A stretch of 64,000 bases of DNA from Candidatus Sericytochromatia bacterium (GTDB lineage Bacteria > Cyanobacteriota > Sericytochromatia > S15B-MN24 > UBA4093): contig JAKFCW010000101.1 in assembly GCA_036676455.1 (NCBI GenBank), positions 5,211 to 69,210 on the forward strand. Direction: 5' to 3'. Of this stretch, positions 38,398 through 58,941 are shown in pieces. A program made the translations under genes and the position numbers. The notes under the pieces were generated by a model, which worked only from the letters and a program-made list of their open reading frames with translations, was not told the DNA's origin and ran no database searches. The stretch's first letter is position 1. Every line of letters begins with the position of its first letter.

Positions 38398-38430
38398 GCT
38401 TCTCCTGCGAGGTGTATTCCTCCTCTCGCT

Positions 38431-38439
38431 GGGTATGAG
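38431..38439 (+). promoter_or_regulatory. Putative -10 element (GGGTATGAG)
   Basis: About 100 nt upstream of the A2 ATG at 38541. Confidence 0.25.
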
Positions 38440-38540
38440 AAAGTTAGCGCTTGTCCGGATCACGGACGTCAAACCGGCCACTCCTTCTTCCACCCTCTGG
38501 AACCTTGCATGGGAGTCGCCGGTACCATGCGGGAGGGTGC

Positions 38541-41500
38541 ATGCGAACTTTCGCCTCAGCGATCACTTCACGGCGAACCTGGCGGATCGTTCTAACGGTC
38601 TGCCTGCTGGCACTGCTGACGGCGTGTCCTCGCCCCCTCGTTCCCCCCGCCTCGACTCCCGGCCTCGGTGCTGATCCCAGCCTCTCGGCCACCGAGCAGG
38701 TCCTGGGCCAGGTGGACTTCGGCGGCCAAACAGTGCAGGCCGATATCTCGGACGACATCGCCCCGGGCGCCACCGTCGCTCTGATCGACGTGCAGACCGG
38801 GCAGACCCTGAGCACCACCCGCACGGACGAGAACGGCCGCTTCGTGCTCGTGTACTCCAACGGCTTCAAGCCGGTATCGGGAGGGCTCTACTACTTCGAG
38901 GCCCTCAAGGGCCTGAAGGGTTCCAGCGGGCTTCCCAACGCCGTAGGCGCGGACGTGGTTCGGGTCCGGACCATCGCCAGCTATCGCAACGGCGGCTGGG
39001 TCACCCTCACCAGCCGGACTGTCACCACCTCGATCCTCATCAACCCCATGACCACGGCCCTGTCGGTCATCGTCAGCCTGCGGCAGGGCTCCGTCGCTCC
39101 TCTCGACGTCAGCACCCTCTTCGGCACGATCAAAGCGGGCCGTCCGGAGGGGAGCTATCCCGACACGCTGGACCTGCCGGATCCCTCGCTGGTACCGCTG
39201 GTCCAGAGCGCCTACGACCTGGTCATCGACGCCCTTGCCAAGGAACGGGACCCCGTCCGCTGGATCACGCTCGATAGCGAGAACCCCAACGTCGTCCGCT
39301 TGCCGGACATCCCCTTCTCGATCAAGTTCCCGGATCCCGGCGTCCAGGAGATCGGCAAGGAACTCGATCTGGTCGGGGTCAACTTCGCCCCGGAAGCCGC
39401 ACAGAACCTGGTCTCTTTCCGCACCGACGGCGGCTGGATCCCCGCCACGGTCGTCTCGGTCCTGCCTGACCTGACCCGCCTCAAGGTCATCGTCCCCGAC
39501 GGCGCGGTCAACGGTCCCATTCGCCTGCAGATCGGCGACAAGATCCTGGTCTCGGATTTCAACTTCCAGCTCGCCGTCGTCGACGGCCACAGCGTCGTGC
39601 GCCCCTTCGGAGGCATTTCCTACCTCTTCGTCGCCAATGCCAGCCTCGGCACCATCGCCTACGTCTCCCCTTCGGGCGAGGCCACTCCGCTGATCAAGAA
39701 CCTCTCGAGCCCGCAGGCGCTGACCTTTGGCCCGGATGGATTCCTCTACGTCGCATGTGGCGGCACCACGAAGCGCGTCGTCCGCTTCGACGTCACCCTC
39801 GACGGCAACGGCAACCTCGTGCCGGGCATCCCAACCGATTACTCCGGCTTGCTTTCCAATCCCTCGGGCATGGCCTTTGATCTCTCCGACCCCAACCCCG
39901 ATCCCAGTCAGCGGCTCTATCCGCTTTACGTCGCGGACCGTGGCCTCAACCAGTTGCACCGGGTGGAGTGGACGGCGAACCGCACCGCGGTCCAGCCCAC
40001 CGCGCTCTTCCCCGTGGCAGGGCTCAATGAGCCGCGCGGCCTCTCCTTCGGTGCCGATGGCCGCCTCTACGTGGCCAACGCCGGGGCCAACAACGTCCTC
40101 GCCGTGTCCAAGCTGAGCGGCGAGAGCGAACCCTACCTCTCGGGTCTCGGCAAACCCTGGTCCGTGGCCTTCGACAGCAAGGGCAACTTCTACGTCAGCA
40201 GCAACACCGGCAACTCCATCTTCCGGCGCGACGCCGTCTCGGGAGTCCTCTCGGCCTTCGCGAGCGTCCCCAGCCCCGGTGGCCTGGACGCCGACGCCTC
40301 GGGTTACATCTACTGCGGAGACAACGTCAGCAACCAGATCTACCTGGTCAACTCGCTGGGCGAGACGCGCATGGTCGCCACGGGCATCAGTTCTCCGATG
40401 GGCATCCACGTCGACGCGGACGGCCTCTTCGTGGTGACCGGCAGCGGCCAGTTGCTCAAGGTCACCCACGACACCGGCTCTCTCTCCGTGCTCGCGGATG
40501 GCCTCACGGGCGCGGGCGACCTGGGCCGCGACTCCGCGGGCAACTTCTACGTCTTCCAGAAGAGCCTCGGTCGCATCTCCCGGATCACCCCCGCGGGGAT
40601 CATCAGCGTCTTCCTCAACGTCACGAACACCTCCGACATCTACGTCAAGGGCAACAAGCTCTACCTCAAGAAGACCAACACCCTACGCCCTGACGGCAAC
40701 TGGTCCGGCATGGGAGGAGTCGAGGTCCGGGATCTCTCCGACCGGGAAGTCGTGCAGGACTTGAAGGTCAGCTACATGCGCGATGCTATCGGCATGGCCT
40801 TCGATACCACTCCGGCCGGCGCCTACCGCGATTGGCTCTACGTGGCCAACCTCGACGATCGCTCGGTCGTGAGGCTCAAGCCGGAAGGCGACGGAGACCT
40901 CAAGCGGCACAAGGTCCATCGCTTCCTCGACCGCGTCAACGCCCCCGAGCTGGATCGGCCATGGGACGTCTGGGTGGATCCGGCCAGCGGCAACGTCTGG
41001 GTCTCGGATCAGGGCACGTCCACCGCCGATGATGGCCTTTACGTCTACAACTCAGCCGGTACCCGGATCGCGGACTATTCGGGCATCGTCGATCGCCCGC
41101 TGAAGTTCGGTTACGACGGCTCGCGCCTCTACCTCGCGAACTACGGAGGCCACGAGGTCATCCGGATCGACCCGACCAGCGGGGCCGAACTGGGGGCGAT
41201 CGCCGTCCCCTACCCCCGCTCGATCGCCTTCGACACGGCCAGCAACCGCATGTTCATCGGGACCTGGGACGGCTCGAGCGGCAGCCGCCCGATCAAGAAG
41301 GTCGACGCTTACGCCACCGCGCCGGTGATGGCGGACTACTACGACCTGCTGGCCTACGACCTGGTCTTCGAGAACGGCAACCTCTACACCGCCGCCGGCT
41401 CCTCCTACAAGATCTCCGCCGACCTGACCCGCCACGATCGCTTCATGTCCTCGCGATCCACCCTCTACGACTTCGCGCGCCGCGCCGACGGCAAGATCTA

Positions 41501-42035
41501 CCACATCACCCGCGACGGCCGCCTGGGCCGCTGGACCACGGACTGGGACGGGGAGATCGCCGCCATGATCGAGTACGCGGGAGGCGGCCCCGTGGTGGTG
41601 GATGGCCTCGGGAACTGGATCTCGGCCTTCATGACGGGCTGCTCGGCCAAGGACATCCTGCTGGGCCGGCTCGACGACTCCGACCCCGCCAGCTTCCAGA
41701 TCACGCCGATCCGCTTCGGAACGGACGACTGCTGGGTGCCGGAGGCCAACATGGCCAGCGACGGAGGCGACCTGGTCTTCATCACGGCCAACCCCAAGGC
41801 GGAGCTGGTCCGCTTCAACACCACGACCTACGCCTTCCATCGCCTCGGCAAGCGTTTCGGCATGACGGATCGCAGCCACGGCGTCAGCGTCTACAACGGC
41901 AAGGTCTACCAGACCATCATGACCCGCCACCAGATCGACGTCTACGACGCCAACGGAGCGTCCGGAGGGGAAGGGTCCAACCCGCCGGCATACCTCGAGA
42001 CCCTGCCCGTCGGGCTGGTCGCACCGGAGCTTTAG
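38541..42035 (+). CDS. Giant lipoprotein, class A (A2). About 1164 aa.
   Basis: ATG at 38541 follows GGGAGGG. The leader is MRTFASAITSRRTWRIVLTVCLLALLTAC-PRPLVPP. It has the same module order as A1 (GATVALIDVQTGQTLSTTRTDENGRFVL, LYYFEALKGL, VRVRTIASY, ERDPVRW, IPT, DGHSVV, NHL-like blades such as LYVANAGANNVLAV, FYVSSNTGNSIFRR and IYCGDNVSNQIYLVN). It ends VGLVAPEL. Confidence 0.85.
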   Translation: MRTFASAITSRRTWRIVLTVCLLALLTACPRPLVPPASTPGLGADPSLSATEQVLGQVDFGGQTVQADISDDIAPGATVALIDVQTGQTLSTTRTDENGRFVLVYSNGFKPVSGGLYYFEALKGLKGSSGLPNAVGADVVRVRTIASYRNGGWVTLTSRTVTTSILINPMTTALSVIVSLRQGSVAPLDVSTLFGTIKAGRPEGSYPDTLDLPDPSLVPLVQSAYDLVIDALAKERDPVRWITLDSENPNVVRLPDIPFSIKFPDPGVQEIGKELDLVGVNFAPEAAQNLVSFRTDGGWIPATVVSVLPDLTRLKVIVPDGAVNGPIRLQIGDKILVSDFNFQLAVVDGHSVVRPFGGISYLFVANASLGTIAYVSPSGEATPLIKNLSSPQALTFGPDGFLYVACGGTTKRVVRFDVTLDGNGNLVPGIPTDYSGLLSNPSGMAFDLSDPNPDPSQRLYPLYVADRGLNQLHRVEWTANRTAVQPTALFPVAGLNEPRGLSFGADGRLYVANAGANNVLAVSKLSGESEPYLSGLGKPWSVAFDSKGNFYVSSNTGNSIFRRDAVSGVLSAFASVPSPGGLDADASGYIYCGDNVSNQIYLVNSLGETRMVATGISSPMGIHVDADGLFVVTGSGQLLKVTHDTGSLSVLADGLTGAGDLGRDSAGNFYVFQKSLGRISRITPAGIISVFLNVTNTSDIYVKGNKLYLKKTNTLRPDGNWSGMGGVEVRDLSDREVVQDLKVSYMRDAIGMAFDTTPAGAYRDWLYVANLDDRSVVRLKPEGDGDLKRHKVHRFLDRVNAPELDRPWDVWVDPASGNVWVSDQGTSTADDGLYVYNSAGTRIADYSGIVDRPLKFGYDGSRLYLANYGGHEVIRIDPTSGAELGAIAVPYPRSIAFDTASNRMFIGTWDGSSGSRPIKKVDAYATAPVMADYYDLLAYDLVFENGNLYTAAGSSYKISADLTRHDRFMSSRSTLYDFARRADGKIYHITRDGRLGRWTTDWDGEIAAMIEYAGGGPVVVDGLGNWISAFMTGCSAKDILLGRLDDSDPASFQITPIRFGTDDCWVPEANMASDGGDLVFITANPKAELVRFNTTTYAFHRLGKRFGMTDRSHGVSVYNGKVYQTIMTRHQIDVYDANGASGGEGSNPPAYLETLPVGLVAPEL

Positions 42036-42044
42036 GAGGCCGCC

Positions 42045-45000
42045 ATGAAGAAGCTGATCGGATGGAGCCTCCTGCTGGCCGTACTCGTCACGGGCTGCCG
42101 CCTGCCGTCGCTGCTGCCGCAGACGCCGACGGGCTCGCCCCAAGCCCTCGCCTCCGCCCATGTCCTCCAGGGCCGCCTGGAACCCCCCAGCCGCCTGCAG
42201 GCGGAGTCCGAAGAGGACCGCAAGCTCCGCGAGATCGCCGAGGCCGCCACCGTCACCTTGATCGACGGCGTCACGGGCCACACCGGCGCAACCACCGTCA
42301 GCAACCCGGACGGCACCTTCGTCATGCGCTTCCAGGACGGCTTCGCGCCCATCGAGGGCCGTCCCTACTTCCTGGAAGCCATCAAGGGCATCAAGGGCCG
42401 TGGCCCGAACACGACCCCCAACGACCTCTTCAACCAGGCCGGTGCCGATGCCGTCCGCCTGCGCACCATCCTTTACTACCAGGATTCGCCCTCGGGCTGG
42501 ATCAGCCCGTCCAACGCCTCGCCCGCCGGCATCACCATCAGCCGGCAGACGACGGCCCTGGCGCTCGCGCTCTTCCTGAAGCAGCACACCATTCCCATCA
42601 ATTACGCGGACTTCATCGGCTGCCTGGCGACCGAGACCTACCAGCCGGTGGCCGGCCTCACGGCGCCTGAGTTCGACAGCGCCTTGCTGATCGTCAAGGA
42701 AGCGATCCTCCAGGACCGCGACCCCATCCAGTTCCTGGCCTACGATTCCAGCTCGCAGTCCTTCATGAACCTCTACAACGGTCACTCGATCGACACCCTG
42801 GTCCCGAGCAGCGGAGGCATCGGCGAGGAGGTCACGATCATCGGCGACGGCTTCGACCTTCCCGGCGAGCTCACCGTGAAGTTCAACGGGGTCGAGGCCT
42901 TCCTGACCGCGCCTCCCACCAAGGACCGCCTCAAGGTGAAGGTCCCCCTCGGCGCTCGCTCGGGCCCGGTTTCCGTCCGCATCGGCACGGTCACCCAGGG
43001 CGGCGGCGAGTTCCGGGTCGACTCCTTCGACGGTCACCGCGCCATGCTCGACGGAGTGCTTTACGTCGCCAACTACGACCGCTCCAAGATCGTCAAGGTC
43101 TTCAGCGACACGATCGACGGAGCGCGCGTCGACGGCATCGTCGAGGACGTCGCCGACGTCCCGGCGGGTCCCACCCAGCTCGCCCTCTACACCACGGAGG
43201 CGGATCCCTCGGTGAAGCGGCTCTTCGTGGCCTGCCGCACCGCCGGGAAGATCGTCACGCTCGACCTGAGCGCCCCCGCCCCGCTCGCCACCGACTTCGT
43301 CGCCTTCTCCGAGCCCACCGCCATGGCCTTCATGGGCAACGTCCTGTACGTGGCCAGCAACACGGGCAAGATCTCGCGCTTCAACCTCGACGGGTCCTCC
43401 GCGGGGCCCGACCTCACCGGCCTCACCGCCCCGACGGCCCTGGCGTTCGACTATGCCGGCAACCTCTTCGTGGCCCTGGACGGGGCCGAGGACCGGATCA
43501 AGCGCATCGAGTTCAACCCGGACGCCTCGATCAAGGCCATGCAGGACTGGGCCTACCTCACCGATCCCAGGGGCCTCGCCATCGACTCGGGCGGCGCCCT
43601 CTACGTGGCCAGCTACACGGACGCTCTGGTCTACCGGATCCTGCCCAGCCTCGCCATGTCGGTCTTCGCGCGGGTCCCCGCTCCCGCGGGCGTCATGCTC
43701 GACGAGGAGGGCTTCCTCTACGTCGCCTCCGACACGCAGCACCAGATCTACCGCGTCTCCACGCTGGGCGACATCAAACCCTACGCCTTCGGCATCAGCC
43801 ACCCGCGCGGGGTCGCCGTGGACGGCAACGGCACGCTCTACGTCTCTTTGAGCGAATCGAACGCCATCCTGAAGGTGGAGGACCGCGGAGCCGCCGGCTA
43901 CCGCACCCGGCCCTTTGTCACCGGCATCGCCAACCCGCACTCCATCACCTGGCGCAATGATCGCCTCTACATCGCCCACCGCGAGGCGGGCGTCATCTCC
44001 TCGGCGGACGCCTTCGGCAGCATGCGCACCGAGGCGACGGGCTTGACCATCCCCGGCGGCGTGGACCTGGGGCCCGACGGCACCCTCTACGCGGGGCGCT
44101 ACGGTGCGAGCGGGCATGCGGCGACCGTCCCCCCCAACGTTCCCTGGCACCAGCGCGGAGACGACGGAGGCATCGAGATCGTCGGGCCCGACGGCCTGGT
44201 CACGGTCAAGCGGCGGATCCTCAGGACCAGTGATCGCGCGATCACCGGCCTCAACGACGGGACCCGCTTCGCCATCAACACGGGCACGGACCAGCTCGTC
44301 ATGTACCAGGCCACCAACGGCCACAACTCGAGCTACCGCTACCGCACGATCCGGCAGTTCGGCGCCAACCCCTTCGCCCTCGAACGCGACGCCACCGGCG
44401 CCAACCTCTTCGTCGTCACCGAGAACACCCCGAGCGTCTATCGCTTCACCGGCGCCGGAGCCGCCTGGACCGAGACCGTCATCGCGATTCCCGGTGTCAC
44501 CGACCCCGAGGCCCTGACCTACGATGCCGATAACGACCGGCTCTACGTCCTGCATGGCACCACCACGATCAAGCGCGTCCTGAACGCCACGCAGCCCACG
44601 GCCGCGCTCGACGGCGCCTGGTCGGCCACGGTCTCCAGCGTCTACGACCTCGCCTACCGCGCGGGCACGCTCTTCCTGGCCCGTAGCACCAAGGACGTGC
44701 AGCAGATCGACCTCACGGCCCCGACGCCCACGCCTACCCTCTACGTGGACGGCTTCGGCGAGACCCCGCGCAACATCGTGGCCCATCCGACCAACGGCGA
44801 GCTTTACGTACGCTCCAGCAACAACCAGTATGCCTACCGGGTGACCGCCACCAAGGTCCTCCAGCTCGACGCCGACTACACCGGTTGGGGGCGCCTCACG
44901 GCCTACGGCATCGCGCCGGACGGCAACCGCATGCGCTCGGAAAGCACCTTCCCGAACTACTACTTCCAGGGCAAGACCACGATCTCGAGCCTGATCCAGA

Positions 45001-45422
45001 GCCACGAGGTGGCCTTCCACGACAACCGCGTCTTCGTCGGCTCGTACATGGGAGGCGGCTACACCGGGGTCTACGCCTACAACCTCGCCGACGGCACCGA
45101 GATGTTCATCCGCGGCACCTTCGACTCCGGCGACGATGCCACCGGAGCCGGAGTGCTCGCCGTGAACCCGGAGGCCAACCAGCTCTACGTGGGAACGGCC
45201 AAAGGCAAGATCTTCAACGTGGATGTCGCCGCCGGGGCCACCGAGGGACAGGTCTCGTCCTTCGCGACGCTCAAGAGCGGGGAATGGCTCTACGGCCTCG
45301 ACATCACCAGCACCCGGGACAAGCTCTGGGCGGTGGGTGGATCTCGTAGCCTCTTCTCGCTCCGTCTGAGCGACAAGGTGGTCACCGAGGTCAAGCCCGG
45401 CCTTTCCCAGCCGAGATTCTAG
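42045..45422 (+). CDS. Giant lipoprotein, class B (B2). 1125 aa.
   Basis: ATG follows AGGAGG, 9 nt after the A2 stop. The leader is MKKLIGWSLLLAVLVTGC-RLPSLLP. Motifs are ATVTLIDGVTGHTGATTVSNPDGTFVM, PYFLEAIKGI, NQAGADAVRLRTIL, QDRDPIQF, IPT, DGHRA. The propeller core includes FGISHPRGVAVDGNGTLYVSLSESNAILKV and [16 protein letters not shown]. It ends KPGLSQPRF. Confidence 0.85.
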   Translation: MKKLIGWSLLLAVLVTGCRLPSLLPQTPTGSPQALASAHVLQGRLEPPSRLQAESEEDRKLREIAEAATVTLIDGVTGHTGATTVSNPDGTFVMRFQDGFAPIEGRPYFLEAIKGIKGRGPNTTPNDLFNQAGADAVRLRTILYYQDSPSGWISPSNASPAGITISRQTTALALALFLKQHTIPINYADFIGCLATETYQPVAGLTAPEFDSALLIVKEAILQDRDPIQFLAYDSSSQSFMNLYNGHSIDTLVPSSGGIGEEVTIIGDGFDLPGELTVKFNGVEAFLTAPPTKDRLKVKVPLGARSGPVSVRIGTVTQGGGEFRVDSFDGHRAMLDGVLYVANYDRSKIVKVFSDTIDGARVDGIVEDVADVPAGPTQLALYTTEADPSVKRLFVACRTAGKIVTLDLSAPAPLATDFVAFSEPTAMAFMGNVLYVASNTGKISRFNLDGSSAGPDLTGLTAPTALAFDYAGNLFVALDGAEDRIKRIEFNPDASIKAMQDWAYLTDPRGLAIDSGGALYVASYTDALVYRILPSLAMSVFARVPAPAGVMLDEEGFLYVASDTQHQIYRVSTLGDIKPYAFGISHPRGVAVDGNGTLYVSLSESNAILKVEDRGAAGYRTRPFVTGIANPHSITWRNDRLYIAHREAGVISSADAFGSMRTEATGLTIPGGVDLGPDGTLYAGRYGASGHAATVPPNVPWHQRGDDGGIEIVGPDGLVTVKRRILRTSDRAITGLNDGTRFAINTGTDQLVMYQATNGHNSSYRYRTIRQFGANPFALERDATGANLFVVTENTPSVYRFTGAGAAWTETVIAIPGVTDPEALTYDADNDRLYVLHGTTTIKRVLNATQPTAALDGAWSATVSSVYDLAYRAGTLFLARSTKDVQQIDLTAPTPTPTLYVDGFGETPRNIVAHPTNGELYVRSSNNQYAYRVTATKVLQLDADYTGWGRLTAYGIAPDGNRMRSESTFPNYYFQGKTTISSLIQSHEVAFHDNRVFVGSYMGGGYTGVYAYNLADGTEMFIRGTFDSGDDATGAGVLAVNPEANQLYVGTAKGKIFNVDVAAGATEGQVSSFATLKSGEWLYGLDITSTRDKLWAVGGSRSLFSLRLSDKVVTEVKPGLSQPRF

Positions 45423-45430
45423 GAGGACCC

Positions 45431-45760
45431 ATGTCGCGCAAGGCGTTGCCGCTACTGCTCTTACTCGTCGCGCTGGCCATCGGCTGCGCGGAGGAGGACG
45501 GCCTGATCGGTGTCGGGCGACCGGGCGACCCGTCTCGGACCGCGGACGCGTCGGCGACTCCCGCCGCGTCGGCGACTCCGAGCCCCGGGGCCTCTCCCGA
45601 GGCCACGCCCTCTCCGGCATGGACTCCCAAGCCCTCGCCCACCCCGGAGCCTCAGCATTCGATCGAGCCGCCTCCCCAGCCCACGGAATCCGAAGCTCCA
45701 GTTGAAAGTCCGTCGCCGGATAGCTATACTTCCCCCGATCCCGATAGCGTTAACGGGTGA
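45431..45760 (+). CDS. Small Pro/Thr/Ser-rich lipoprotein (S2), 109 aa
   Basis: AGGAGGA RBS. The leader is MSRKALPLLLLLVALAIGC-AEEDGLIGVG, followed by a low-complexity P/S/T/A/E region. Confidence 0.75.
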   Translation: MSRKALPLLLLLVALAIGCAEEDGLIGVGRPGDPSRTADASATPAASATPSPGASPEATPSPAWTPKPSPTPEPQHSIEPPPQPTESEAPVESPSPDSYTSPDPDSVNG

Positions 45761-45782
45761 GGTCACGATGAAAGAGGAAACC

Positions 45783-45971
45783 ATGAGATCCAGCTTCCCG
45801 ATCCTGGGCATCGCGTTGGCGGCTCTGTTGGCCTTCGGGGCCGGTTGCGCGGAGGAGGACGGCCTGTTCGGCGTTGGCGGCACCGGAGGCAAGAAGGCCA
45901 CGGCTTCCCCCACGAACGGCACTCCGACGCCCACTCCGAGCGGCAGCGGCTTCTCCGGCGGCATCAAGTAG
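45783..45971 (+). CDS. Very small lipoprotein (S'2), 62 aa
   Basis: ATG at 45783 follows AAAGAGGAAA. It translates as MRSSFPILGIALAALLAFGAGC-AEEDGLFGVGGTGGKKATASPTNGTPTPTPSGSGFSGGIK, a clear paralog of 55078..55269. Confidence 0.65.
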   Translation: MRSSFPILGIALAALLAFGAGCAEEDGLFGVGGTGGKKATASPTNGTPTPTPSGSGFSGGIK

Positions 45972-45990
45972 CCTCGCCCTCGCTCAACAA

Positions 45991-46053
45991 AAAAGCCATC
46001 GGCTCCAGCCTCCCCGCCTCTCGGCGGCAGGACGGCTGGAGCCGATGGCTTTT
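45991..46053. terminator. Strong bidirectional rho-independent terminator
   Basis: A 20-bp perfect stem aaaagccatcggctccagcc / ggctggagccgatggctttt is flanked by an A-run and a T-run, between the converging S'2 gene and the minor-pilin operon. Confidence 0.85.
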
Positions 46054-46061
46054 ATCAGGTG

Positions 46062-46646
46062 CTAGGGGATGTTGCGCAGGAAGACGGTCGTCGTCAGGTA
46101 GCGCGGAGGGGACTCCGGCTTGGACTGGATGACCATGTAGATCTCGATGCGCCGGACGTTCGCGAGCAAGGCGGTGGGGTTGCCCGCTGCATCCAGGTAG
46201 GTGAAGAGGCTGATCGGCGTGGTGGCCTTGCTGCCGTCTCGCCGGCGCAGCGAGAGTGCGCCGGGGTTATGGTTCTGGATCAGGCGCTCCGAGCTGATGG
46301 GTAGCGCTCCGCTGCCCAGGTCGAGCCGCAAGGGGCGGAGGCGGGGATCGGCGGCAATGGCGGGTGCCAGGGAGATCTGCCGGGCGGTGGCGCCGTTGTC
46401 GACGACCGAGGTGTAGCTTATCGAGCTGGTGGCGATCGCCGTCAGGCTCCGCGCGTTCGCGAGCTCCTGGCTGATCAGGGACAGGGGTTGCATGGCCTGG
46501 CGGGCGCCCTTGAACTCCCCGACCACCGTCGTGACGGTTTGCTGCTGGCTGCGGAACAGCATGAACAGCCCCGTCATGAAGCCCGCCATCAGCGTCAGGG
46601 CCAGGGTCGTCTCCAGCAGGCTCATGCCCTTCTGAGCGCGGTTCAT
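46062..46646 (-). CDS. Minor pseudopilin (GspJ/PilW-like), 194 aa
   Basis: MNRAQK-G|MSLLETTLALTLMAGFMTGLF prepilin motif. The start overlaps the upstream stop by 1 nt. Confidence 0.75.
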   Translation of the reverse strand: MNRAQKGMSLLETTLALTLMAGFMTGLFMLFRSQQQTVTTVVGEFKGARQAMQPLSLISQELANARSLTAIATSSISYTSVVDNGATARQISLAPAIAADPRLRPLRLDLGSGALPISSERLIQNHNPGALSLRRRDGSKATTPISLFTYLDAAGNPTALLANVRRIEIYMVIQSKPESPPRYLTTTVFLRNIP

Positions 46647-47068
46647 CAGAGCCCCCCCTTCGCGGGGCCGACGATCTTGTCGAATAGCACGGTGCCCACC
46701 ACGGCCTTCGCTGCACCGATAGCCTCGTACTCGGCCGTCGCGGTGTAAGTGGCCTTGCTGAAGCCGTTGACGGGCCCGACGAGGGCCGTGCGATCGGCGC
46801 GCACCGAGTAGGTCGCCCCCGACATGACCAGCACCGCGCCCGTGTGCAGCACATCGGCGGCCGGGCGCGCGCGCATGGTCTCGACCTCGTCGCGCAGCAG
46901 GTGATCGACGATCTCGGGGTGAGGCAGGGGCCCCCGATTGGCAGGCGAGACGCTGGCCACCATGCTACGCGTCAGCTGCGTGATCCCGACGACGCCCGCC
47001 ATCAGGATGAGGACGGCCAGCATGGCCTCCAGCAGCGAGAACCCTTGCTGACGCTTACTTCTGTTCAT
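46646..47068 (-). CDS. Minor pseudopilin (GspI/PilV-like), 140 aa
   Basis: MNRSKRQQ-G|FSLLEAMLAVLILMAGVVG prepilin motif. It overlaps the upstream gene by 14 nt. Confidence 0.75.
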   Translation of the reverse strand: MNRSKRQQGFSLLEAMLAVLILMAGVVGITQLTRSMVASVSPANRGPLPHPEIVDHLLRDEVETMRARPAADVLHTGAVLVMSGATYSVRADRTALVGPVNGFSKATYTATAEYEAIGAAKAVVGTVLFDKIVGPAKGGL

Positions 47069-47537
47069 AGCGCTGTATCACCCAGTGGCTTCCGGTGGCG
47101 ACATCGACGAGGATCTTGCGGGTGGCCTTGGGCCAGTTCGTCGATCCCCCGACCGGCCGAGCCTCGCCCGTCACCTCGAACCGGTAGACGTTCGGGGCGG
47201 GATCGGGAGGGACCGAGACGACCCGGTAGACGACGTTCTGGGTCACTGCGCCCTCCGGGTAGGGTATCACGCGGTTCGGCAGGGCGGAGGCGGGCGGAAT
47301 CTCCAGCGGCGCGTTGCGGGTGGCCTTGGAGTTGTTGCGGTACATCAGGTCGTTGACCCCCATCTCGGCGGCATACAGCGCCTGGGTGCCCGGGTAGCCC
47401 GCGTACTTCATGCCGGCCGCATCGGAGGCATGTCGGCGCAGGAACTGGCTGGCCCCGAGGCTCAGCAGCGTCATGCCGAGGATCAGCACCATGACGATCA
47501 GGAGGGTGTTTCCGCGTTCGGAGGATCGTTCTCGCAT
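47055..47537 (-). CDS. PilX/GspK-like minor pilus protein (hydrophobic N-helix, no canonical G|F cleavage motif), about 160 aa
   Basis: Start is placed at ATG 47537 (MRERSSERGNTLLIVMVLILGMTLLSLGAS), which resembles PilX_N-type N-termini. The track ORF start at 47690 is unlikely. Confidence 0.55.
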   Translation of the reverse strand: MRERSSERGNTLLIVMVLILGMTLLSLGASQFLRRHASDAAGMKYAGYPGTQALYAAEMGVNDLMYRNNSKATRNAPLEIPPASALPNRVIPYPEGAVTQNVVYRVVSVPPDPAPNVYRFEVTGEARPVGGSTNWPKATRKILVDVATGSHWVIQRYEQK

Positions 47538-47661
47538 ACCGCCTGCATACCCGCCATTGGCCAAAATGCACCTCTGACGGGCTGACGGGGGCTTCTCGCA
47601 CGAAAGCTTGAATGAAGAATTGGTGAGCCCTGGCGAGGTGGTGCAGATCTGCTGCAATTCT

Positions 47662-47670
47662 GGGTAAAAC
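47662..47670 (+). promoter_or_regulatory. Putative -10 element (GGGTAAAAC)
   Basis: About 70 nt upstream of the A1' ATG at 47739. Confidence 0.2.
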
Positions 47671-47738
47671 GTGCTCACAGTCGCTCGCAACCTGAGGGGG
47701 CGCTCGCTCTAGTCGCGCGTGGGGAAAGAAGGCCAGTC

Positions 47739-50700
47739 ATGAGAATCACGTCGTTCATCCAGGCGCTAGCCCGCTTAAACGCCCTGGTACTCGCGGCCGT
47801 GCTGCTGCTCGTCCTGACGGCCTGCCCTCGGCCGCTGGTCCCGCCGATCGGCCTGGGGGGGGCGCAAAGCCTCACGTTGGACGCGGAGAGCGGCGTGACG
47901 GGCCGCGTGGAGTTCGGCGCGCGCGCCACCCAGGCCACCATCAAGGACGACGTCGCCCCTGGCGCCACCGTCTCCTTGATCGAGGTGGCCACCGGCAACA
48001 CGGTGACCACCACCCGGACGAACGCCGATGGCACCTTCGTGCTCAAGTACTCCAACGGCTTCAAGCCGGTGAACGACTCCATCTACTACTTCGAGGCGAT
48101 CAAGGGGCTTTCCGGCGGTACGGACCAGCCGAACGCGGTCGGAGCGGACGCCGTGCGCGTGCGCACCATCGCGAGCTACCGCCGGGGCGGCTGGGTGACC
48201 CTGTCGAGCCGGGGCGTCTCCACGGCCATCTCGATCACCCCCATGACCACCGCCCTCTCGATCGTGGTCAGCCTGCGCTCCACCACCAACCGCCCGCTCG
48301 ACGTGAACACCCTCTTCGGCACCATCCGCCTGGGCCAGGCCTCGGACGGCTTCAACGATACCGTGGACATCGCCGATCCCGCGCTGGTCGCCATGGTTCA
48401 GAGCGCCTACAACCTCGTCCTGGACTCCTTCAACAAGGACCGGGACCCGCTGCGCTGGATCCTCCTCAACGCGGCGGATGCCTCGCATAACTCGGTGCTC
48501 CTGCCCGACGTCCCCTTCTCGATCGTCAGCCTCTCGCCCGCCGAGCAGGAAGCCGGCGGCGAGATCCAGCTGATCGGCAGCAACTTCGCCTCCGTCCTCG
48601 CGGACAACGAGGTCGCCTTCCAGACCAATAACGACGCCACCGTCTCCGCCTCGGTCCTCGCCGTCAGCCCCGACCTGGCCCGCCTCACGGTCAAGGTCCC
48701 GCTGACGGCCGTCAACGGCCCCGTCACCCTCACCATCGGGCAGGGCGATAAGCGCAAGACCCTCTTGGGCCCCGCCTTCCGCGTGGCGACGCGCGACGGC
48801 CACAGCGTGGTCGATGCCGCCGGCAAGGTCTACGTGGCCAACCGCGACCTCGGGACGGTGGCGGTGATCGGCCCCAACGCGACCACGGGCAAGACCGAGA
48901 TCCGGGCCTTGATCGAGAGCCTCGACAAGCCGGGTGCGCTCACCTTCGCCCCGGGCGACTACAAGACCCTCTACGTCGCCCTGGGCGGCACCACTCGCAA
49001 GGTCAGGAAGTACGACATCACGGCCCAGCCCATCACCGGCGTGGATTACTCCGGGGCGGGCGGCGTGGCCAACCCCTCGGGCGTCGCCTTCCAGGTCTCG
49101 ACCGGCGCCCTTTACCTCACGGACGCGACCGCCAACAAGCTATACGTGGTCGCCGCGGAGGGCGGAGCGGCCCAGGAGGTCGCACTTACCCTTCCCCTCG
49201 GCGTCAGCCTGAACGGCCCGCGCGGCCTCTCGTTCGGTCCCGACGGCAAGCTCTACCTGGCGAACTCCGGCGCGAACAACGTGCTCGCGATCGACCTGAG
49301 CGCCGCCGCCATCGGCAGCGGGGCCGTCTACCAGACGGGCCTGAGCTCGCCGTGGGGCCTGGCCTTCGACAACAAGGGCTCCTTCTACGTCAGTAACAAC
49401 AAGGGCAACTCGATCTTCACGGTCCCCGTCACCTCGGAGCCGGGCGTCATCCCGCTTGTCTACGCCTCCCTGACCTCCTTCGCGAGCATCCCCAACCCCG
49501 GGGGCCTCGATGCGGACTCCTCGGGCTACCTCTACGTGGCCGACAACGTCAGCAACGGCGTCTACCGCGTCAACCCGGCCGCCGAGTCCCGCCAGATCGG
49601 CTTCGGCATCAGCTACCCCGTGGCCACCTGGGCGGATGCCGAGGGCGTCTTCACCCTTACCCAGGAAGGCCGACTGCTGCAGATCGACACCCAGAACGCC
49701 CTCTCCGTCTATGCCGAGGGCCTCACGGCCTCGGCCGGCCTGGTGCGCGACATTCGCGGCAACTTCTACACCTACAACACCGTCCTCAAGACGCTGATCC
49801 TCGTCCGACCGGACGGCTCGAGCGTGCAGGTCATGTCGGCCCTCGACGCCTACTACCCCGAGCTGTCGATCAACAACGCGCGCGATCGGATCTACTTCCG
49901 CCGCCGCAACTCCGACATCTCCGCCATGGGCCAGGTCGACGCCTATGATCTCAACCTCGACGCCGGGGCTCCATACATGCCCCACTTCAACGTCGGACCC
50001 GATCTCCTCGCCGCTCCCAATCAGGTCTACAAGTCCCCCATGCGCCGCGTGATCGCCATCGCGGCCGACCGCACGGCCGCCGGCCCCCGCCGAGGCGAGT
50101 ACTACGTGCTGCAGGACAACACCAACTCCGAGCAGGCCGTCATGCGCGTCACCTCCGTGGATTCCAACACCTACGACGCCGTCCGGATCGTCAACAACGC
50201 CGACGGACGCCTCAAGGACCCCTCCGACATCGCCATCGATTCCGAAGGCAAGATCTGGGTGGCCGATCGCATCGGCGCCTCCGGGACCGGCGGCCTGATC
50301 ATCTACGACGCCAACGGAGCCTACCTCGACGAGATCGCCGTCGCGCGCCCTGTCCGCCTCGCGTACAACGGGACCCATGTCGTCGCGAGCTGCTACGACT
50401 CGGGCGAGGTCCGCTTCTACAACGCCGACAAGACCCTGGCCCAGAACCTGTCGGGTATCCCCAACCCCGTCGGCGTGGCCTTCTCCAACACCGCTCCCCA
50501 TGTGAACGCCATGTTCGTCAACTCCCACTCGACCGGAAAGGTCTACAAGTTCGACAACTACGCCGCCCTGGGCACCGCCAACGTCGCGGCCTCCCTGGCC
50601 GCGAACGACTACTACGACACGGGCAACAACAACGACATCGAGATGGTGGGCAACGCCCTGATCTTTACCAGCGGCGGCCAGGCGCGCCGGCTCGAGGCCG

Positions 50701-51284
50701 ATCGCCTCACGCGCAACGACTCCTGGATGAACCAGTACTCCTCCTACCTGCGCTTCAACGTCGATCACAACGGCTCGCGCATCTTCGTCACGGACAACTC
50801 CTGGTCCCACCTCGCTCACAACGGCTCGTACAGCGCCGCTTTCGCGGGGCTGCGCGGTTACTCCGCCTCAGGCATCGGCACCCCCATCGTCCTCAACAAC
50901 TCCATGGTGTCGTACGCCCACATCGGCTACAGCGCCAACGCCATCGTCGTCGACTCCGAGCACGATGGGATCAACCAGCGCACCCGCAACGGCCTGGGCT
51001 ACCTCGGAGCGGCCACCAGCAACGGTACGGACACCGCCTTCTTCGCCTCCACGACCGGCGGCACCATCTACAAGTGGAAGAAGGACGCCGTCACCGGCAA
51101 GGGCGTCGCCACCACGGTCGTCAGCGGAGGCTACTCGGGATTCGACTACGTCCGCGGTCTCAGCTACTACAACGGCTACCTTTACCAGCCGATCCGCGAG
51201 AAGCACGTGATCCGGAAGGTCAATGCCGACAACGGGGCCGACAAGGTCGAACTCAAGGTGGGCGTCGTCGCCCCCGAGCTCTAG
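47739..51284 (+). CDS. Giant lipoprotein, class A (A1', closest to A1). 1181 aa.
   Basis: The leader is MRITSFIQALARLNALVLAAVLLLVLTAC-PRPLVPP. Motifs are GATVSLIEVATGNTVTTTRTNADGTFVL, IYYFEAIKGL, VRVRTIASY, DRDPLRW, IPT, RVATRDGHSVVDAAGKVYVANRDLGTVAV (compare A1: RLDTRDGHSVVDARGNLYAANRGLGTVAI). It ends VGVVAPEL. Confidence 0.85.
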   Translation: MRITSFIQALARLNALVLAAVLLLVLTACPRPLVPPIGLGGAQSLTLDAESGVTGRVEFGARATQATIKDDVAPGATVSLIEVATGNTVTTTRTNADGTFVLKYSNGFKPVNDSIYYFEAIKGLSGGTDQPNAVGADAVRVRTIASYRRGGWVTLSSRGVSTAISITPMTTALSIVVSLRSTTNRPLDVNTLFGTIRLGQASDGFNDTVDIADPALVAMVQSAYNLVLDSFNKDRDPLRWILLNAADASHNSVLLPDVPFSIVSLSPAEQEAGGEIQLIGSNFASVLADNEVAFQTNNDATVSASVLAVSPDLARLTVKVPLTAVNGPVTLTIGQGDKRKTLLGPAFRVATRDGHSVVDAAGKVYVANRDLGTVAVIGPNATTGKTEIRALIESLDKPGALTFAPGDYKTLYVALGGTTRKVRKYDITAQPITGVDYSGAGGVANPSGVAFQVSTGALYLTDATANKLYVVAAEGGAAQEVALTLPLGVSLNGPRGLSFGPDGKLYLANSGANNVLAIDLSAAAIGSGAVYQTGLSSPWGLAFDNKGSFYVSNNKGNSIFTVPVTSEPGVIPLVYASLTSFASIPNPGGLDADSSGYLYVADNVSNGVYRVNPAAESRQIGFGISYPVATWADAEGVFTLTQEGRLLQIDTQNALSVYAEGLTASAGLVRDIRGNFYTYNTVLKTLILVRPDGSSVQVMSALDAYYPELSINNARDRIYFRRRNSDISAMGQVDAYDLNLDAGAPYMPHFNVGPDLLAAPNQVYKSPMRRVIAIAADRTAAGPRRGEYYVLQDNTNSEQAVMRVTSVDSNTYDAVRIVNNADGRLKDPSDIAIDSEGKIWVADRIGASGTGGLIIYDANGAYLDEIAVARPVRLAYNGTHVVASCYDSGEVRFYNADKTLAQNLSGIPNPVGVAFSNTAPHVNAMFVNSHSTGKVYKFDNYAALGTANVAASLAANDYYDTGNNNDIEMVGNALIFTSGGQARRLEADRLTRNDSWMNQYSSYLRFNVDHNGSRIFVTDNSWSHLAHNGSYSAAFAGLRGYSASGIGTPIVLNNSMVSYAHIGYSANAIVVDSEHDGINQRTRNGLGYLGAATSNGTDTAFFASTTGGTIYKWKKDAVTGKGVATTVVSGGYSGFDYVRGLSYYNGYLYQPIREKHVIRKVNADNGADKVELKVGVVAPEL

Positions 51285-51296
51285 AGGAGAACGCCG

Positions 51297-54200
51297 ATGA
51301 AACGCCTGACCACTCTCGTTCTGCTCGCGTTCCTCCTCACGAGCTGCCGGCTGCCCTCCCTGCTTCCGACTTCCATGACGTCCGGGGATGGCGCCGGCGG
51401 TACCGCGGCCCGGCAGACCGTCGTCCTCAAGGGCCGCATCGAGGAGCCGCGCTCCGTCATGGCCACTCCCGCCGACATCGCCAACGGCGCCACCATCGCC
51501 CTGATCGATGCGGAATCCGGCCTGACGCTCGGCACCAGCCTCTCGGATCCCCTTGGTAACTTCTTTCTCAGTTTCGGTGACGGCACGAACCTGGTGGACG
51601 GCCGCGCCTACTACCTCGACGTCATGAAGGGCGTCCGCCTCGACGCCAATCAACCCGATTCCCCCTTCAACCAAGCCGGCGCGGATACCCTGCGGCTGCG
51701 CAACATCCTCTTCTACCAGGAGGCCTCGATGGCGGGCTCCGCGGGCTGGAAGAGCCTGATGAACGGCACCGCCGGCAACGTGGTCAACGTAGGCAACCGC
51801 TCGACCACCATGAGTATCGCGCTCGCCCTCAAGCGCCAGGCCGGCGAGACCGTCGTCCTCTCCGACTTCGCGGGCGCCCTCGAGGCGGATATCGAGAACG
51901 ATCCCGCCTGGACCATGGGAGGGCTGACCCAACCCGTTTACACCACCCTGAAGTCGATCGTCCTGGAGGCCATCGCCAACGACCGCGATCCGATCCAGTA
52001 CGCGGTCTACGACGAGGGAAGCAAGACCTTCATGAACCCCTGGATCGGCTTCTCCATCGCCTCCGTCACCCCCGCCGAGGGACCCATCAACCAGGTGATC
52101 ACCATCTCGGGGGAGGGCTTCGACCTCGGCGACCCGACCGTCGCGGTCAACGGCCGCGAGGCCCAGGTCCTCACCCGGACCGCCCAGGTGATCACGGCCA
52201 AGGTCATGCCCGGATCCCGGACCGGCCCCGTCTCCGTCAAGATCGGGACCACCCTGCAGGCCGGCAACACCTTCAAGGTCAACTTCCACGACGGCCACAG
52301 CGCCCTCTACGATCGCACCGTGCTGGGCCAGCCCGTTCGCATGCTCTACGTGGCCAATCCCGCGTGGAACACCATCGTCGAGGTCTCCCCGGACGGCGCC
52401 ATCACCAAGGTCTGGGACGACACCACCATCCCCGAGCTGAAGACCCCTCGCCAGGTCGCCGTCTGGAACGGCAAGCTCTACGTCTCGTGCGATCCCTCCG
52501 GGACGGCCAACGACAAGATCCTCCAGCTCGATCCGACGAATCCCGCCGCCAAGGTCGTCTACAGCACGGCGGTCCAGCACCCCTACGGCCTGGCCTTCGA
52601 CCTCGATGGCTTCCTGCACGTCTCGAGCTATCAATCGGCCGGATCGGTCGTCAAGCTCGATGCCGCGGGCGCCGTCGTCGCCCAGTACGCCGGCCTGGCG
52701 TCGCCCCGTGGCCTCGCCTTCGATTACCTCGGCAACCTCTTCGTCGCCGAGGAGGGCGGTAGGGTCGTCAAGCTCACCGCTCCCGCCATGACCGCCGAGA
52801 CCTGGGGCCTGCTGCCGTCTCCGCTTGGCCTCGCCGTGGACTCGGCAGGAGATCTCTTCGTCGCCAGCAACACCAACGACGTCATCTACCGCATCAGCAG
52901 CCTGCGCGCCATGTCGGTCTTCGCCATGCTCAACAAGCCCGGCGGCCTCACCATCGACGAGCGGGGCTACCTCTACGTCTCGGATACCAGCCAGAACCTG
53001 GTGCGCCGCATCTCGCCCTCGGGAGACGCCAAGATCTACGCCTACGGCATCAGCAACCCGCGCGGCCTCGCCGTGGATCCCACCAACGGCACCCTCTTCA
53101 TCTCGCTCAACAAGTCCAACGCCATCCTGAAGGTGGAGAATGGGGCGCTCAAGCCCTTCGTCACGGGCATCGCCAACCCCATGACCATCACCTTCCGCGG
53201 CAAGGGCCTCCTGATCGCCCATCCGGAGACCCATACCATCTCCTACGCGGAGCGCGACGGCAAGATCAGCACGCTGGCGACGGGCCTGGAGTACCCCGGC
53301 GGAGCCGATCAGGCTGCCGACGGCGCCGGCAACCTGACGGGGCCTCTCTACGCCGCACGCTTCGGCGACATGGAGAGCCCCTTCTCGGCCCGCCTGCCGC
53401 GCTACGACTCCTACGAAGTTTCTAACGGCTCCCACAACGGGGTCGACGTGATCGGCGGCGCCTCGCCTGGCCTCCGGCGCTGGCTCTACCGCCAGCAACT
53501 CAACTACATCGCCGTCGACGCCGCCAAGAACATCTACGCCATCCACTCCGGCGATCGCACCCTGACCAAGATCGCGGCCGAGCCCGGCGGCGGCAACGCG
53601 TCGCGCAAGGTCACCCGGATCGCCGGCCCCCGCTCCCCCTACACCTTCGGAGGCAATCCCGGCTGGGTCTCGGTCGACGCCAACTCCAACATCTACGTCG
53701 TGGTGCCCAGCGAGCACTTGATCTACCGCTTCAAGCCCACGGGCGGCACCTACGCCATGGACACGATCACGGGCTTCAACAGCCCCTGGGGCATCGCCTT
53801 CTCGGATACCACGCCTCAGGCCATGTTCGTCTCCAACACGGCGGACGGCAAGATTCGCCGGGTCCTCGACGCCGTCAACGACGCCGCAGCCCAGCCGACC
53901 ACGACCTTCGAGATCCCGGCCAGCACCGGGGTCCGGGGCCTCGCGTACATGGCCTCGGGCGTGGCGGGCACGGGCACCCTCTACATGGCCAACGGGACCA
54001 GCATCATGATGGCCGGGATCTCCGGCAACGCCTACACGGCCGCCTCCTATGCGACCTACTTCTCGGGCCTGCCGGGCTCTTGCTCGTACCTCTACGCGAA
54101 GCCTTTGACCGGCGAGGTCTTCGCCTGGGCAAACGCGACGTTTGCCTACGTGGTGCCGCCGGATCTTCCCCTGGTGCCGTACGTATTCAAGGATTACACC

Positions 54201-55040: not shown

Positions 55041-55077
55041 CGCGCATGCGTCGAGTTCCGTCCAGAAAGAGGTTCGC

Positions 55078-58937: not shown

Positions 58938-58941
58938 GGAG

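Follow-up and report, generated by a model that had tools for sequence, protein, structure and literature searches.

A divergent minor-pilin-like operon and a lipoprotein array at a type IV filament locus of Sericytochromatia

How type IV filament machines choose the cargo that they display or secrete is a long-standing question. We know of no linear signal for the substrates of type II secretion systems (T2SS), nor, to our knowledge, is a conserved C-terminal tail a known T2SS signal. The tip of the T2SS pseudopilus, as Korotkov and Hol reportedly described it in 2008, consists of GspI, GspJ and GspK. Certain large lipoproteins, such as PulA of Klebsiella and SslE of E. coli, reach the cell surface in a T2SS-dependent manner and are encoded beside their own T2SS.

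Two related sets of proteins are described for other type IV filaments. The core minor pilins of photosynthetic cyanobacteria--PilX, PilV, PilW and FimT--are proposed to prime filament assembly, and all cyanobacterial PilX homologues carry a beta-solenoid 'plug' domain (Schuergers et al., bioRxiv 10.64898/2026.02.12.705559). PilC/PilY1 of Neisseria, a beta-propeller protein of about 110 kDa, docks with its last 12 residues on the PilX-type subunit PilK by beta-strand augmentation; this PilY1 plug was described only in 2026 (bioRxiv 10.64898/2026.09.18.752573).

Here a contiguous stretch of 64,000 nucleotides from a Sericytochromatia bacterium (termed here the window) is analysed, in which three prepilin-like genes (g3, g2 and g1), a filament machine and an array of lipoprotein genes occur together. 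The locus is a natural test case: it combines what looks like a three-subunit cap, with a PilX-type protein devoid of an accessory domain, and, within the family, dozens of nearby paralogous giant lipoproteins with a common short tail. A literature search on pili in Sericytochromatia, or on a tie between NHL lipoproteins and a T2SS, returned nothing specific.

Three overlapping prepilin-like genes

Positions 46062-47537 of the minus strand hold three overlapping, conserved open reading frames that encode two prepilins (G↓MSLLE and G↓FSLLE, the arrow marking the predicted cut) and a 160-residue protein of the PilX_N type. Their GC content at third (0.82-0.92) and second (0.48-0.50) codon positions matches that of bona fide genes of the window; g3 and g2 overlap by 14 nt, and g2 and g1 by 1 nt (TGATG). 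At least eight further contigs keep the three genes together, at 34-67% identity, so the trio is not there by chance. Reading frames, GC signal and orthologues thus agree with the original prediction of three overlapping minus-strand genes with prepilin-like N-termini. The features of a class III signal (a basic leader, Gly, Glu at +5 and a hydrophobic helix) are present in g1 and g2, and in g3 without the Glu. No prepilin peptidase was found among the scanned open reading frames of the window.

The middle gene, g2 (46646..47068, minus strand), specifies a canonical prepilin of 140 residues, the size of PilV or GspI, with the N-terminus MNRSKRQQ-G↓FSLLEA, an assignment that rests on the N_methyl model and on orthologues. 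It is the sole member of the trio above a curated model threshold, scoring 25.7 bits against Pfam N_methyl (gathering score 21.2), and its Gly9 and Glu14 (G-1 and E+5) are invariant in seven orthologues. Its match to the PilV model TIGR02523 covers the N-terminus only and falls below the cutoff (27.0 versus 52.2 bits); the T2SSI (GspI) model has no match on it.

The 194-residue product of g1 (46062..46646, minus strand) appears to be a prepilin, as judged from an AlphaFold2 (AF2) model and a sub-threshold N_methyl score (13.3 bits; 4 of 11 family members match weakly), and its globular domain belongs to no described family. Within its N-terminus, MNRAQK-G↓MSLLET, the residues L-E-T are at least 90% conserved and G-1 and E+5 are nearly invariant in the family, one subclade of which is without any leader peptide. 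Homologues are few: only 10 among 5.8 billion proteins. The AF2 model (pLDDT 72.9, from a shallow alignment) has a helix at residues 3-63 followed by a beta domain, that is, a pilin topology. None of the 11 members matches PilW or GspJ in Pfam or NCBIfam, a sequence profile search of the PDB found no significant match, and Foldseek with the model against the PDB returned nothing at E<=0.001 (EpsJ ranked fourth, at E=0.39), a test weakened by the fact that solved pilins are without the N-terminal helix.

The remaining gene, g3 (47055..47537, minus strand), encodes the 160-residue PilX_N-type, minor pilin-like protein, as indicated by coding signal, orthologue alignment, profile relatives and an AF2 model. 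All orthologues back a start at 47537 (MRERSSERGNTLLIVMVLILG...), whereas public gene calls place it at 47492 and thereby lose the leader. The N-terminus consists of a basic leader, MRERSSER-G↓NTLLI, in which position +5 is Ile, not Glu. According to the original prediction g3 had no cleavage glycine; yet every close orthologue whose N-terminus is available has the Gly of SER-G↓NT, which 59 relatives conserve at 90% or more, and the residue actually missing is Glu5. A profile search at a library-wide E<=1e-3 gathered 65 family members among 1.84 billion representatives. Of the 59 relatives scanned, 12 carry Pfam PilX_N (E<=0.01; best 5.9e-8), and G9, A57, E58 and N62 are each at least 90% conserved in the relatives. 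The window's g3 itself, which carries the motif QALYAAEMGVN, does not match PilX_N (PF14341) at E<=10, and one orthologue does so at E=0.068; the motif common to g3 and its PilX_N relatives is RG(N/S), a hydrophobic helix and QAxYxAExGxN. One distant relative is labelled PilX by its source.

Searches of g3 against other models and structures were negative. N_methyl (PF07963) has no match on it. Neither does T2SSK (GspK) in Pfam or NCBIfam, and g3 has 160 residues against about 330 and an AF2 model without the inserted helical domain. That model (pLDDT 76, again from a shallow alignment) places helices at 6-44 and 47-71 before five strands, in a pilin topology; Foldseek against the PDB gave nothing at E<=0.001 (best, the S. 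sanguinis minor pilin PilA, at E=0.07), and a PDB sequence profile search gave chance-level matches only.

Taken together, the three look like a minor-pilin set for priming or capping, very divergent and stripped-down, with three members against the usual four, a count that speaks against a cap. Across the trio and all family members, Pfam and NCBIfam yielded N_methyl on g2 and weak N-terminal matches, and no curated model for GspI/J/K or PilV/W/X was matched; the globular parts correspond to no Pfam family and to no solved structure. Hence such names mark resemblance and not membership. What survives of the predicted GspI/J/K or PilV/W/X composition is a minor-pilin module, recognizable by motifs, PilX_N relatives and AF2 topology. 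In public annotation this divergent minor-pilin family is either missed or cut short; a metagenome scan found no locus with the g1 alignment and two with that of g3.

The neighbouring machine and the lipoprotein array

Pfam and NCBIfam assign a type IV filament machine to 10.5-23 kb of the window. Its core operon (16405..22994, plus strand) encodes a GspF/PilC-like platform protein, a 145-residue pilin, a PilM-PilN fusion (GspL-like), a GspC-like protein and an assembly ATPase with an MshEN c-di-GMP-binding domain. The minus-strand part (10563..16102) comprises a pilin (10563-11102), an ABC-2 permease, a lipoprotein (12615-13175), a secretin (13159-15054) and two further pilins (14972-15556 and 15563-16102). 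Judged by sequence, T2SS and T4aP fit this machine about equally well: it scores 202 bits for GspD versus 186 for PilQ, 288 for GspF versus 262 for PilC and 539 for PilB versus 534 for GspE, all below the equivalog cutoffs. The four pilins of the core locus are mutual paralogues and none resembles g1-g3, in keeping with the original prediction of a core machine with four pilins and no GspK/PilX-like member.

Whose operon this is can be settled by synteny. In other lineages, orthologues of the core operon (54-92% identity) adjoin the g operon, and in two of these (L004/L006 and L019/L020) g1 and the orthologous ATPase gene (67-88% identical) converge directly on each other; in L004/L006 there is no array within 10 kb. 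In a Sericytochromatia MAG contig (LC028), the order runs from secretin-pilins through F-pilin-PilMN-C-E to A-B-S-S-A-B-S and on to convergent g1-g2-g3, with only 108 nt between the ATPase gene and the first A gene, which follows it on the same strand. The block from DnaJ to g3 of this contig recurs, inverted, in the window, and in both the A-B-S array lies exactly between the ATPase gene and the operon. These arrangements strongly support the assignment of g3-g2-g1 to the neighbouring machine, which in the window is 23 kb away, and with it the earlier suggestion that the two loci are complementary. The accompanying picture of an operon embedded within the lipoprotein array is better inverted: since the array stands between the ATPase gene and the operon, which are in direct contact in two lineages, it is the array that lies inside the pilus locus.

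The array between the ATPase gene and g1 (30851..45971, plus strand) was delimited by Pfam, lipoboxes and C-terminal tails. It consists of A1, B1, A2 and B2, which are TIG/NHL beta-propeller lipoproteins of 1090-1194 residues, and of the small lipoproteins S1 (45431-45760) and S2 (45768-45971). Beyond g3, a second half (47739..64000, plus strand; Pfam and lipoboxes) continues with A3, B3, S, A4, B4, S and a fifth A-type gene; the two S genes lie at 54711-55040 and 62285-62632, and the fifth A-type gene runs off the window from 62761. As predicted, the operon sits at the junction of duplicated double cassettes: A2 and A4 are 52% identical, B2 and B4 50%, A1 and A3 43%, and B1 and B3 38%, so that by sequence an old duplication of a double cassette gave rise to the flanking arrays.

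Between the convergent S2 (plus) and g1 (minus) genes lies an inverted repeat (45977..46067) with 42-nt arms (45977-46018 and 46026-46067). This repeat, behind which come a T run (minus strand) and TTTT (plus strand), is probably an intrinsic terminator that works in both directions. On the other side of the operon, g3 and A3 diverge from a 201-nt intergenic region (47538..47738) in which promoters are presumed and no sigma-70-like site was scored. Of the terminator and promoter region said to bracket the operon, the former is thus backed by the repeat and its T runs, and the latter lacks a sigma-70-like match.

The A and B proteins have only NHL, SGL and TIG domains in Pfam and ScyE-like propellers in NCBIfam; neither library found a PilY1-type propeller in them, and NCBIfam found no C-terminal sorting domain known to it. 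Their lipoboxes indicate SPII processing. An invariant tail, …VGLVxPEL or …GΦxxP[VR]F, closes every A or B protein; among A homologues, about 35 have ...G(L/V)xxPE(L/I) as their exact C-terminus, and the B types finish with ...GΦxxPx(F/Y). Such a tail might instead be recognized by, for example, a PDZ domain, a protease or a sorting factor, which would speak against a coupling to the cap. Since the lipoprotein genes are inserted between operon and machine, the A and B proteins are, by analogy, plausible clients of that machine.

Weighing the explanations

The preferred reading, to which we give about an even chance, is that g3-g2-g1 is the minor-pilin priming or cap module of the 10.5-23 kb machine (itself T2SS/T4P-like) and that the A/B lipoproteins are clients of the cap. 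If the trio is indeed the cap, the odds that A and B are its clients are even or slightly better. A sizeable possibility, short of an even chance, is that the trio caps the machine while the array is a bystander, that is, a fast-duplicating family that expanded in a permissive, convergent ATPase/g1 junction. The original prediction had proposed a functional link between pseudopilus and lipoproteins, to be given up if array and machine occurred apart; at the level of adjacency they do so in part. In L015, L016 and L021, A-B-S arrays stand among unrelated housekeeping genes and no pilus gene lies within +/-10 kb of them, and two lineages have machine and operon with no array at the ATPase/g1 junction. 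(The idea that unannotated genes upstream of the L016 cassette, of 548, 135 and 372 residues, duplicate the machine was rejected: tblastn of the machine proteins of the window had no match there.) For a 275-296 kb contig with the array-less arrangement, no A homologue was among the matches listed by a word-based search that is incomplete and also missed g3 of LC028, so that the gene's absence does not follow. Moreover, the family is highly amplified (at least five A, four B and three related genes in the window), which makes adjacency by chance, and synteny by inheritance, more likely. However, an A-B-S cassette abuts g1 in five lineages (the window, L007, L017, L003/L013 and L018; 35-67% identity), and this adjacency persists down to 35% identity while the abutting paralogue turns over, differing between lineages. 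Likewise, the same-strand A gene just behind the ATPase gene of LC028, the TIG protein and S-like lipoprotein on the other side of the machine in L019, and invariant tails that call for a dedicated reader all speak against a mere bystander. The functional link is accordingly suggestive only, with recurrent adjacency in five lineages and invariant tails on one side and arrays away from pilus genes on the other.

Two further explanations concern the trio itself. It is very unlikely that the trio serves another type IV filament system elsewhere in the genome (e.g., a canonical pilMNOQ pilus) and is placed here incidentally: the machine locus does already own four pilins, but the trio directly adjoins the orthologous ATPase operon in two independent lineages, and LC028 and the window have the same syntenic block. 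Hardly any weight falls on the idea that the three are small bitopic membrane proteins with a hydrophobic N-terminus (e.g., lipoprotein-handling or regulatory) rather than filament subunits. In its favor, g1 and g3 are below every curated family threshold, the g1 subclade without a leader exists and structural matches are not significant; against it stand the N_methyl score of g2, the G-1/E+5 register kept in g1 and g2, the PilX_N signature of g3 and its PilX_N-positive relatives, the helix-plus-sheet topology of the AF2 models and the linkage of the operon to a filament machine.

For the preferred reading, in which trio and lipoproteins act together, what is known of GspIJK and PilVWX suggests the following course. 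A prepilin peptidase whose gene lies elsewhere would cut g1 and g2, and probably g3, behind the conserved Gly; g1, g2 and g3 would then assemble in the inner membrane on the PilMN/GspF platform, with g3, devoid of Glu5, on top; and the complex would seed polymerisation of one of the four major-type pilins. The C-terminal tails of A and B may dock on g3 and/or g1 as PilC/PilY1 plugs on PilK, whereupon the filament might either carry A and B on its tip or drive them out through the secretin onto the cell surface; g3 has no built-in plug domain, unlike the PilX of photosynthetic cyanobacteria. Synteny would fit a history in which the operon was at first convergent with the ATPase gene, and A-B-S cassettes were inserted and amplified at that junction and subsequently beyond it. 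Should tail and cap interact, the tail would be a portable targeting tag, the place of the array inside the pilus locus would be explained, and a first functional handle on the surface biology of an uncultured cyanobacterial sister class would be gained; should they not, a clean description of a very divergent minor-pilin family would still result.

Comparison with known systems

The nearest set by host is that of photosynthetic cyanobacteria, to which the Sericytochromatia are the sister class. Both sets have a PilX-type subunit without Glu5 and a single locus with small and larger prepilins. However, the operon here has three genes and no FimT-like member, and g3, at 160 residues, is modeled as a plain five-stranded sheet without a beta-solenoid; sequence similarity is confined to the N-terminal ~75 residues.

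The trio resembles GspI-GspJ-GspK (XcpV-W-X; PMC6211770) in combining a small pseudopilin, a larger one and a cap subunit without Glu5, and in being encoded with a machine that has a secretin and GspE/F-like, GspL-like and GspC-like proteins. It differs in that the T2SSI, T2SSJ and T2SSK models are unmatched, GspK is twice as large as g3, the genes run cap-small-large rather than I-J-K, and the machine, below every equivalog cutoff, scores equally as T4aP.

As for cargo, PulA and SslE likewise are large lipoproteins encoded in or beside a secretin/pseudopilus locus, and they set a precedent for surface export by such a machine; A and B are not homologous to them, and form many paralogous pairs accompanied by small Pro/Thr-rich lipoproteins. 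The FimU-PilVWX-PilY1 and PilHIJK-PilC systems (PMC7541494) also have large beta-propeller proteins (~110-130 kDa) encoded beside a minor-pilin operon, with several paralogues per genome, and the short conserved tail of A and B recalls the PilC/PilY1 'plug', from which docking here would follow by analogy. Unlike PilC/PilY1, which have SPI signals and the PilY1 propeller, A and B have SPII signals and NHL/TIG domains, and are arrayed as A-B-S triplets. A bolder, rather doubtful proposal is that Sericytochromatia have a hybrid T2SS/T4P machine whose plug-less, three-subunit cap is completed by exchangeable clients from the large family of paired A/B proteins, the universal 8-10-residue tail of which beta-augments g3 and/or g1. 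If so, one machine would display or export many alternative surface lipoproteins, and these would amount to a PilY1 analogue made of lipoproteins, with a tail that would be a novel targeting signal, defined by sequence, of a type IV filament system.

A minimal and divergent set of minor pilins

Because the window has a G+C content of about 67%, spurious long ORFs are common within it, and ORFs were filtered by codon position (GC3 > 0.8). This filter picks out three consecutive minus-strand ORFs exactly at 46062-47537, where a minor-pseudopilin operon had been predicted: g3 (47055-47537), g2 (46646-47068) and g1 (46062-46646), with g3 and g2 overlapping by 14 nt and g2 and g1 by one base (TGATG). 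The translations agree with the original prediction that g1 and g2 have prepilin N-termini, which read MNRAQKG-MSLLETTLALTLMAGF and MNRSKRQQG-FSLLEAMLAVLILMAG, respectively. For g3, said to be without a cleavage glycine, the canonical glycine is in fact present (SER-G-NT); close orthologues conserve it, as do at least 90% of 59 relatives, and what is absent from g3 is Glu at +5. The g3 protein opens with MRERSSERGNTLLIVMVLILGMTLLSLG, a start backed by every orthologue. Public g3 calls (145 aa) begin 15 codons late, at an internal ATG, and lose the conserved leader MRERSSERGNTLLIV (window 47492-47537), which hides the pilin-like nature of g3. Downstream of g1, and shared with a convergent small lipoprotein gene, is an inverted repeat with 42-nt arms and T runs at both sides--a credible bidirectional terminator, as had been proposed--and on the upstream side of g3 a divergent region of 201 nt separates it from lipoprotein gene A3.

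The g2 protein scores above the Pfam N_methyl threshold (25.7 versus 21.2 bits), is weakly PilV-like (below cutoff), and has invariant Gly-1 and Glu+5. The g1 protein has the same prepilin register with a sub-threshold N_methyl score; its globular part matches no Pfam or NCBIfam family, and only 10 homologues occur among 5.8 billion clustered proteins. For g3 there is no direct match to Pfam or NCBIfam models, and when 1.84 billion representatives are searched exhaustively with a profile, only 65 relatives emerge at E ≤ 1e-3. Pfam PilX_N is passed by 12 of the 59 relatives scanned (best 5.9e-8), all share a basic leader, RG(N/S), a hydrophobic helix and then QAxYxAExGxN, and one distant relative is annotated as PilX at its source. 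AlphaFold2 models of moderate confidence (pLDDT 73 for g1, 76 for g3) have pilin topology, that is, a long N-terminal helix and an antiparallel sheet, and g3 has no extra domain. Foldseek and PDB sequence searches with g1 and g3 return no significant match, the best Foldseek match for g3 being a Gram-positive minor pilin at a non-significant E = 0.07. The trio is thus a very divergent, minimal minor-pilin set, consisting of a PilX_N-type, cap-like subunit without Glu5, a small prepilin and a larger prepilin. The predicted GspI/J/K or PilV/W/X composition is borne out by motifs and topology as regards a minor-pilin set, which in its working looks like those systems; membership of those families is not demonstrable.

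In one subclade (L004:9557-10510 and L006:73-1038, on related contigs; proteins P0005-P0007, P0009 and P0010) g1 is leaderless and begins with M-ASFLET immediately behind the g2 stop, without a change of frame (VGL-stop-MASFLET). Removal of the initiator Met would place Glu at +5 as in the other g1 proteins, with no need for prepilin peptidase; alternatively, read-through of the stop would fuse g2 with g1.

The pilus locus and the lipoprotein array

The type IV filament machine at 10.5-23 kb comprises a secretin, four mutually paralogous pilins, a GspF/PilC-like platform protein, a PilM-PilN fusion (GspL-like), a GspC-like protein and an assembly ATPase, and scores equally as T2SS and T4aP, always under equivalog cutoffs. 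The ATPase (21201-22994) carries an MshEN c-di-GMP-binding domain (NF053729, 55.5 bits versus a cutoff of 38; also Pfam MshEN), which suggests that the machine may be under c-di-GMP control. Directly downstream of the secretin gene, and overlapping it, is a gene for a 186-aa lipoprotein (12615-13175) without a family match, which could be a pilotin-like partner.

None of the four machine pilins resembles g1-g3, so that the predicted complementarity of the two loci was reasonable on content; related contigs decide the matter. On L004 (a JGI contig) and L006 (a Logan contig), where identity to the window is 46-51% for g1 and 88% for the ATPase, an orthologous trio is immediately convergent with an orthologous ATPase-GspC-PilMN-pilin-GspF operon. 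On the more distant L019 and L020 (34% identity) the order is TamB, response regulator, RplS, Peptidase_C11, g3-g2-g1 and the convergent ATPase...GspF operon. In the sole genome match, MAG 'Candidatus Sericytochromatia bacterium LC028', left flank and machine are the same, and A-B-S-S-A-B-S occupies precisely the interval from the ATPase gene to g1, the first A gene following the ATPase gene 108 nt on, on the same strand. The window has the LC028 arrangement, expanded further by more cassettes beyond g3. By this synteny, trio and machine form one conserved block, and the lipoprotein array is embedded in the pilus locus--the reverse of the original prediction, which placed the operon inside the array. 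The array may have been inserted in one clade or lost in two others: the distant, array-less L019 favours insertion, but the equally distant L018 has a cassette beside g1. Very probably the trio serves as this machine's cap.

The pilus block has the same neighbours in the window (3686-10448) and in L004, namely genes for Peptidase_M61 (with PDZ), x292, a DnaJ-domain protein and a 660-aa protein; relative to L004 and to M61-x292, everything from DnaJ to g3 lies in the opposite orientation in the window. In three lineages a Peptidase_C11 (clostripain-like) gene, absent from the window, comes after rplS and directly precedes g3 on its strand (L003:7307-9061, L013:729-2504, L019:7435-9255, L020:1703-3523). 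At 556-1844 the window also contains two adjacent SET-domain protein genes, which are unusual in bacteria.

Lipoproteins A, B and S

A and B (1090-1265 aa) combine Ig-like TIG or CarboxypepD_reg domains with NHL/SGL beta-propellers, and have lipoboxes TAC-PRPL (A) and C-(R/K)LPSL (B); S proteins are small Pro/Thr-rich lipoproteins. All of the roughly 35 full-length A homologues retrieved end exactly in G(L/V)xxPE(L/I), or VG(L/V)xxPE(L/I)-COOH (A1-A4 in the window, ends 34378, 42035, 51284 and 58937), and all B types terminate in GΦxxPx(F/Y), or G(I/L/M)xxP(V/R/T)(F/Y)-COOH (B1-B4, ends 37661, 45422, 54710 and 62271; homologues, P0019-P0058). These extreme C-terminal tails fall outside every Pfam and NCBIfam model, sorting domains included, and are kept also in stand-alone cassettes far from any pilus genes.

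Right after the lipid Cys, S lipoproteins (45431-45760, 45768-45971, 54711-55040, 62285-62632; L019:18604-19119) and a 364-aa NHL protein (26871-27965) share an acidic motif, C-A-(E/A/G)-(E/D)-(D/E)-(D/G)-L-(I/L/F)-G, in place of which A has C-PRPL and B has C-(R/K)LPSL. The motif is reminiscent of acidic surface-export signals in Bacteroidota lipoproteins. A 48-codon ORF (38193-38339) lies between B1 and A2, at the place of the S gene in other cassettes; it encodes an A-type lipoprotein signal (VTAC-PRPL) and looks like what is left of an A copy that was lost or recombined. A fifth A-type gene (62761-64000, lipobox LLAGC-PRPLV) runs past the window edge; the array therefore continues beyond it.

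Possible coupling of cap and lipoproteins

Beyond the gene structure, motifs, conservation and synteny, which are observed directly, GspIJK, PilVWX and PilHIJK biology suggests that g1-g2-g3 would be cleaved at their conserved glycines, would assemble at the platform with g3, lacking Glu5, on top, and would prime polymerisation of a locus pilin. A/B tails might then bind the cap, with the filament either displaying the lipoproteins or pushing them out through the secretin. Surface lipoproteins that depend on a T2SS have precedents in PulA and SslE.

Whether the trio is both cap and coupled to A/B is, in our judgment, evenly poised. A functional link had been predicted from the operon's position, and what speaks for it is recurrence: an A-B-S cassette abuts g1 in five lineages at 35-67% identity (window, L007, L017, L003/L013, L018), with varying paralogues in that place (B2-type in L018, B3/B1-type in LC028); L019 has a TIG protein and an S-like lipoprotein at the machine's other edge; and the invariant A/B tail, absent from the original prediction, points the same way. 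A doubtful but serious alternative is that the trio caps the machine and the array is a bystander. On L015, L016 and L021, cassettes and arrays have housekeeping genes for neighbours and lack pilus genes within 10 kb; L004/L006 have no array near the pilus locus; and given how far the A/B family has been amplified, adjacency by inheritance or by chance is not negligible.

Two recent preprints bear on the tail. The beta-propeller adhesin PilC/PilY1 of Neisseria (~110 kDa) docks on PilK, a PilX-type minor pilin, through its last 12 residues, which add a beta-strand (beta-strand augmentation) and are enough for tip localisation (bioRxiv 10.64898/2026.09.18.752573). Unlike PilC/PilY1, A and B are lipoproteins and lack a PilY1 domain, which counts against coupling. 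PilX proteins of photosynthetic cyanobacteria have an inserted beta-solenoid proposed to replace the PilY1 plug (bioRxiv 10.64898/2026.02.12.705559); as modelled, g3 differs in lacking this domain, which makes an external, plug-bearing partner an attractive idea. The resulting tail-plus-minimal-cap hypothesis is sharply testable and the main source of interest here. We found no literature on this trio, machine and lipoprotein system. As a kind, the minor-pilin priming module of a type IV filament machine is already known; new are the minimal three-gene set with a PilX_N-type subunit that has no extra domain, globular domains that belong to no described family, an occurrence limited to a few Sericytochromatia-like lineages, and arrays of tail-bearing giant lipoproteins inserted between ATPase gene and cap operon.
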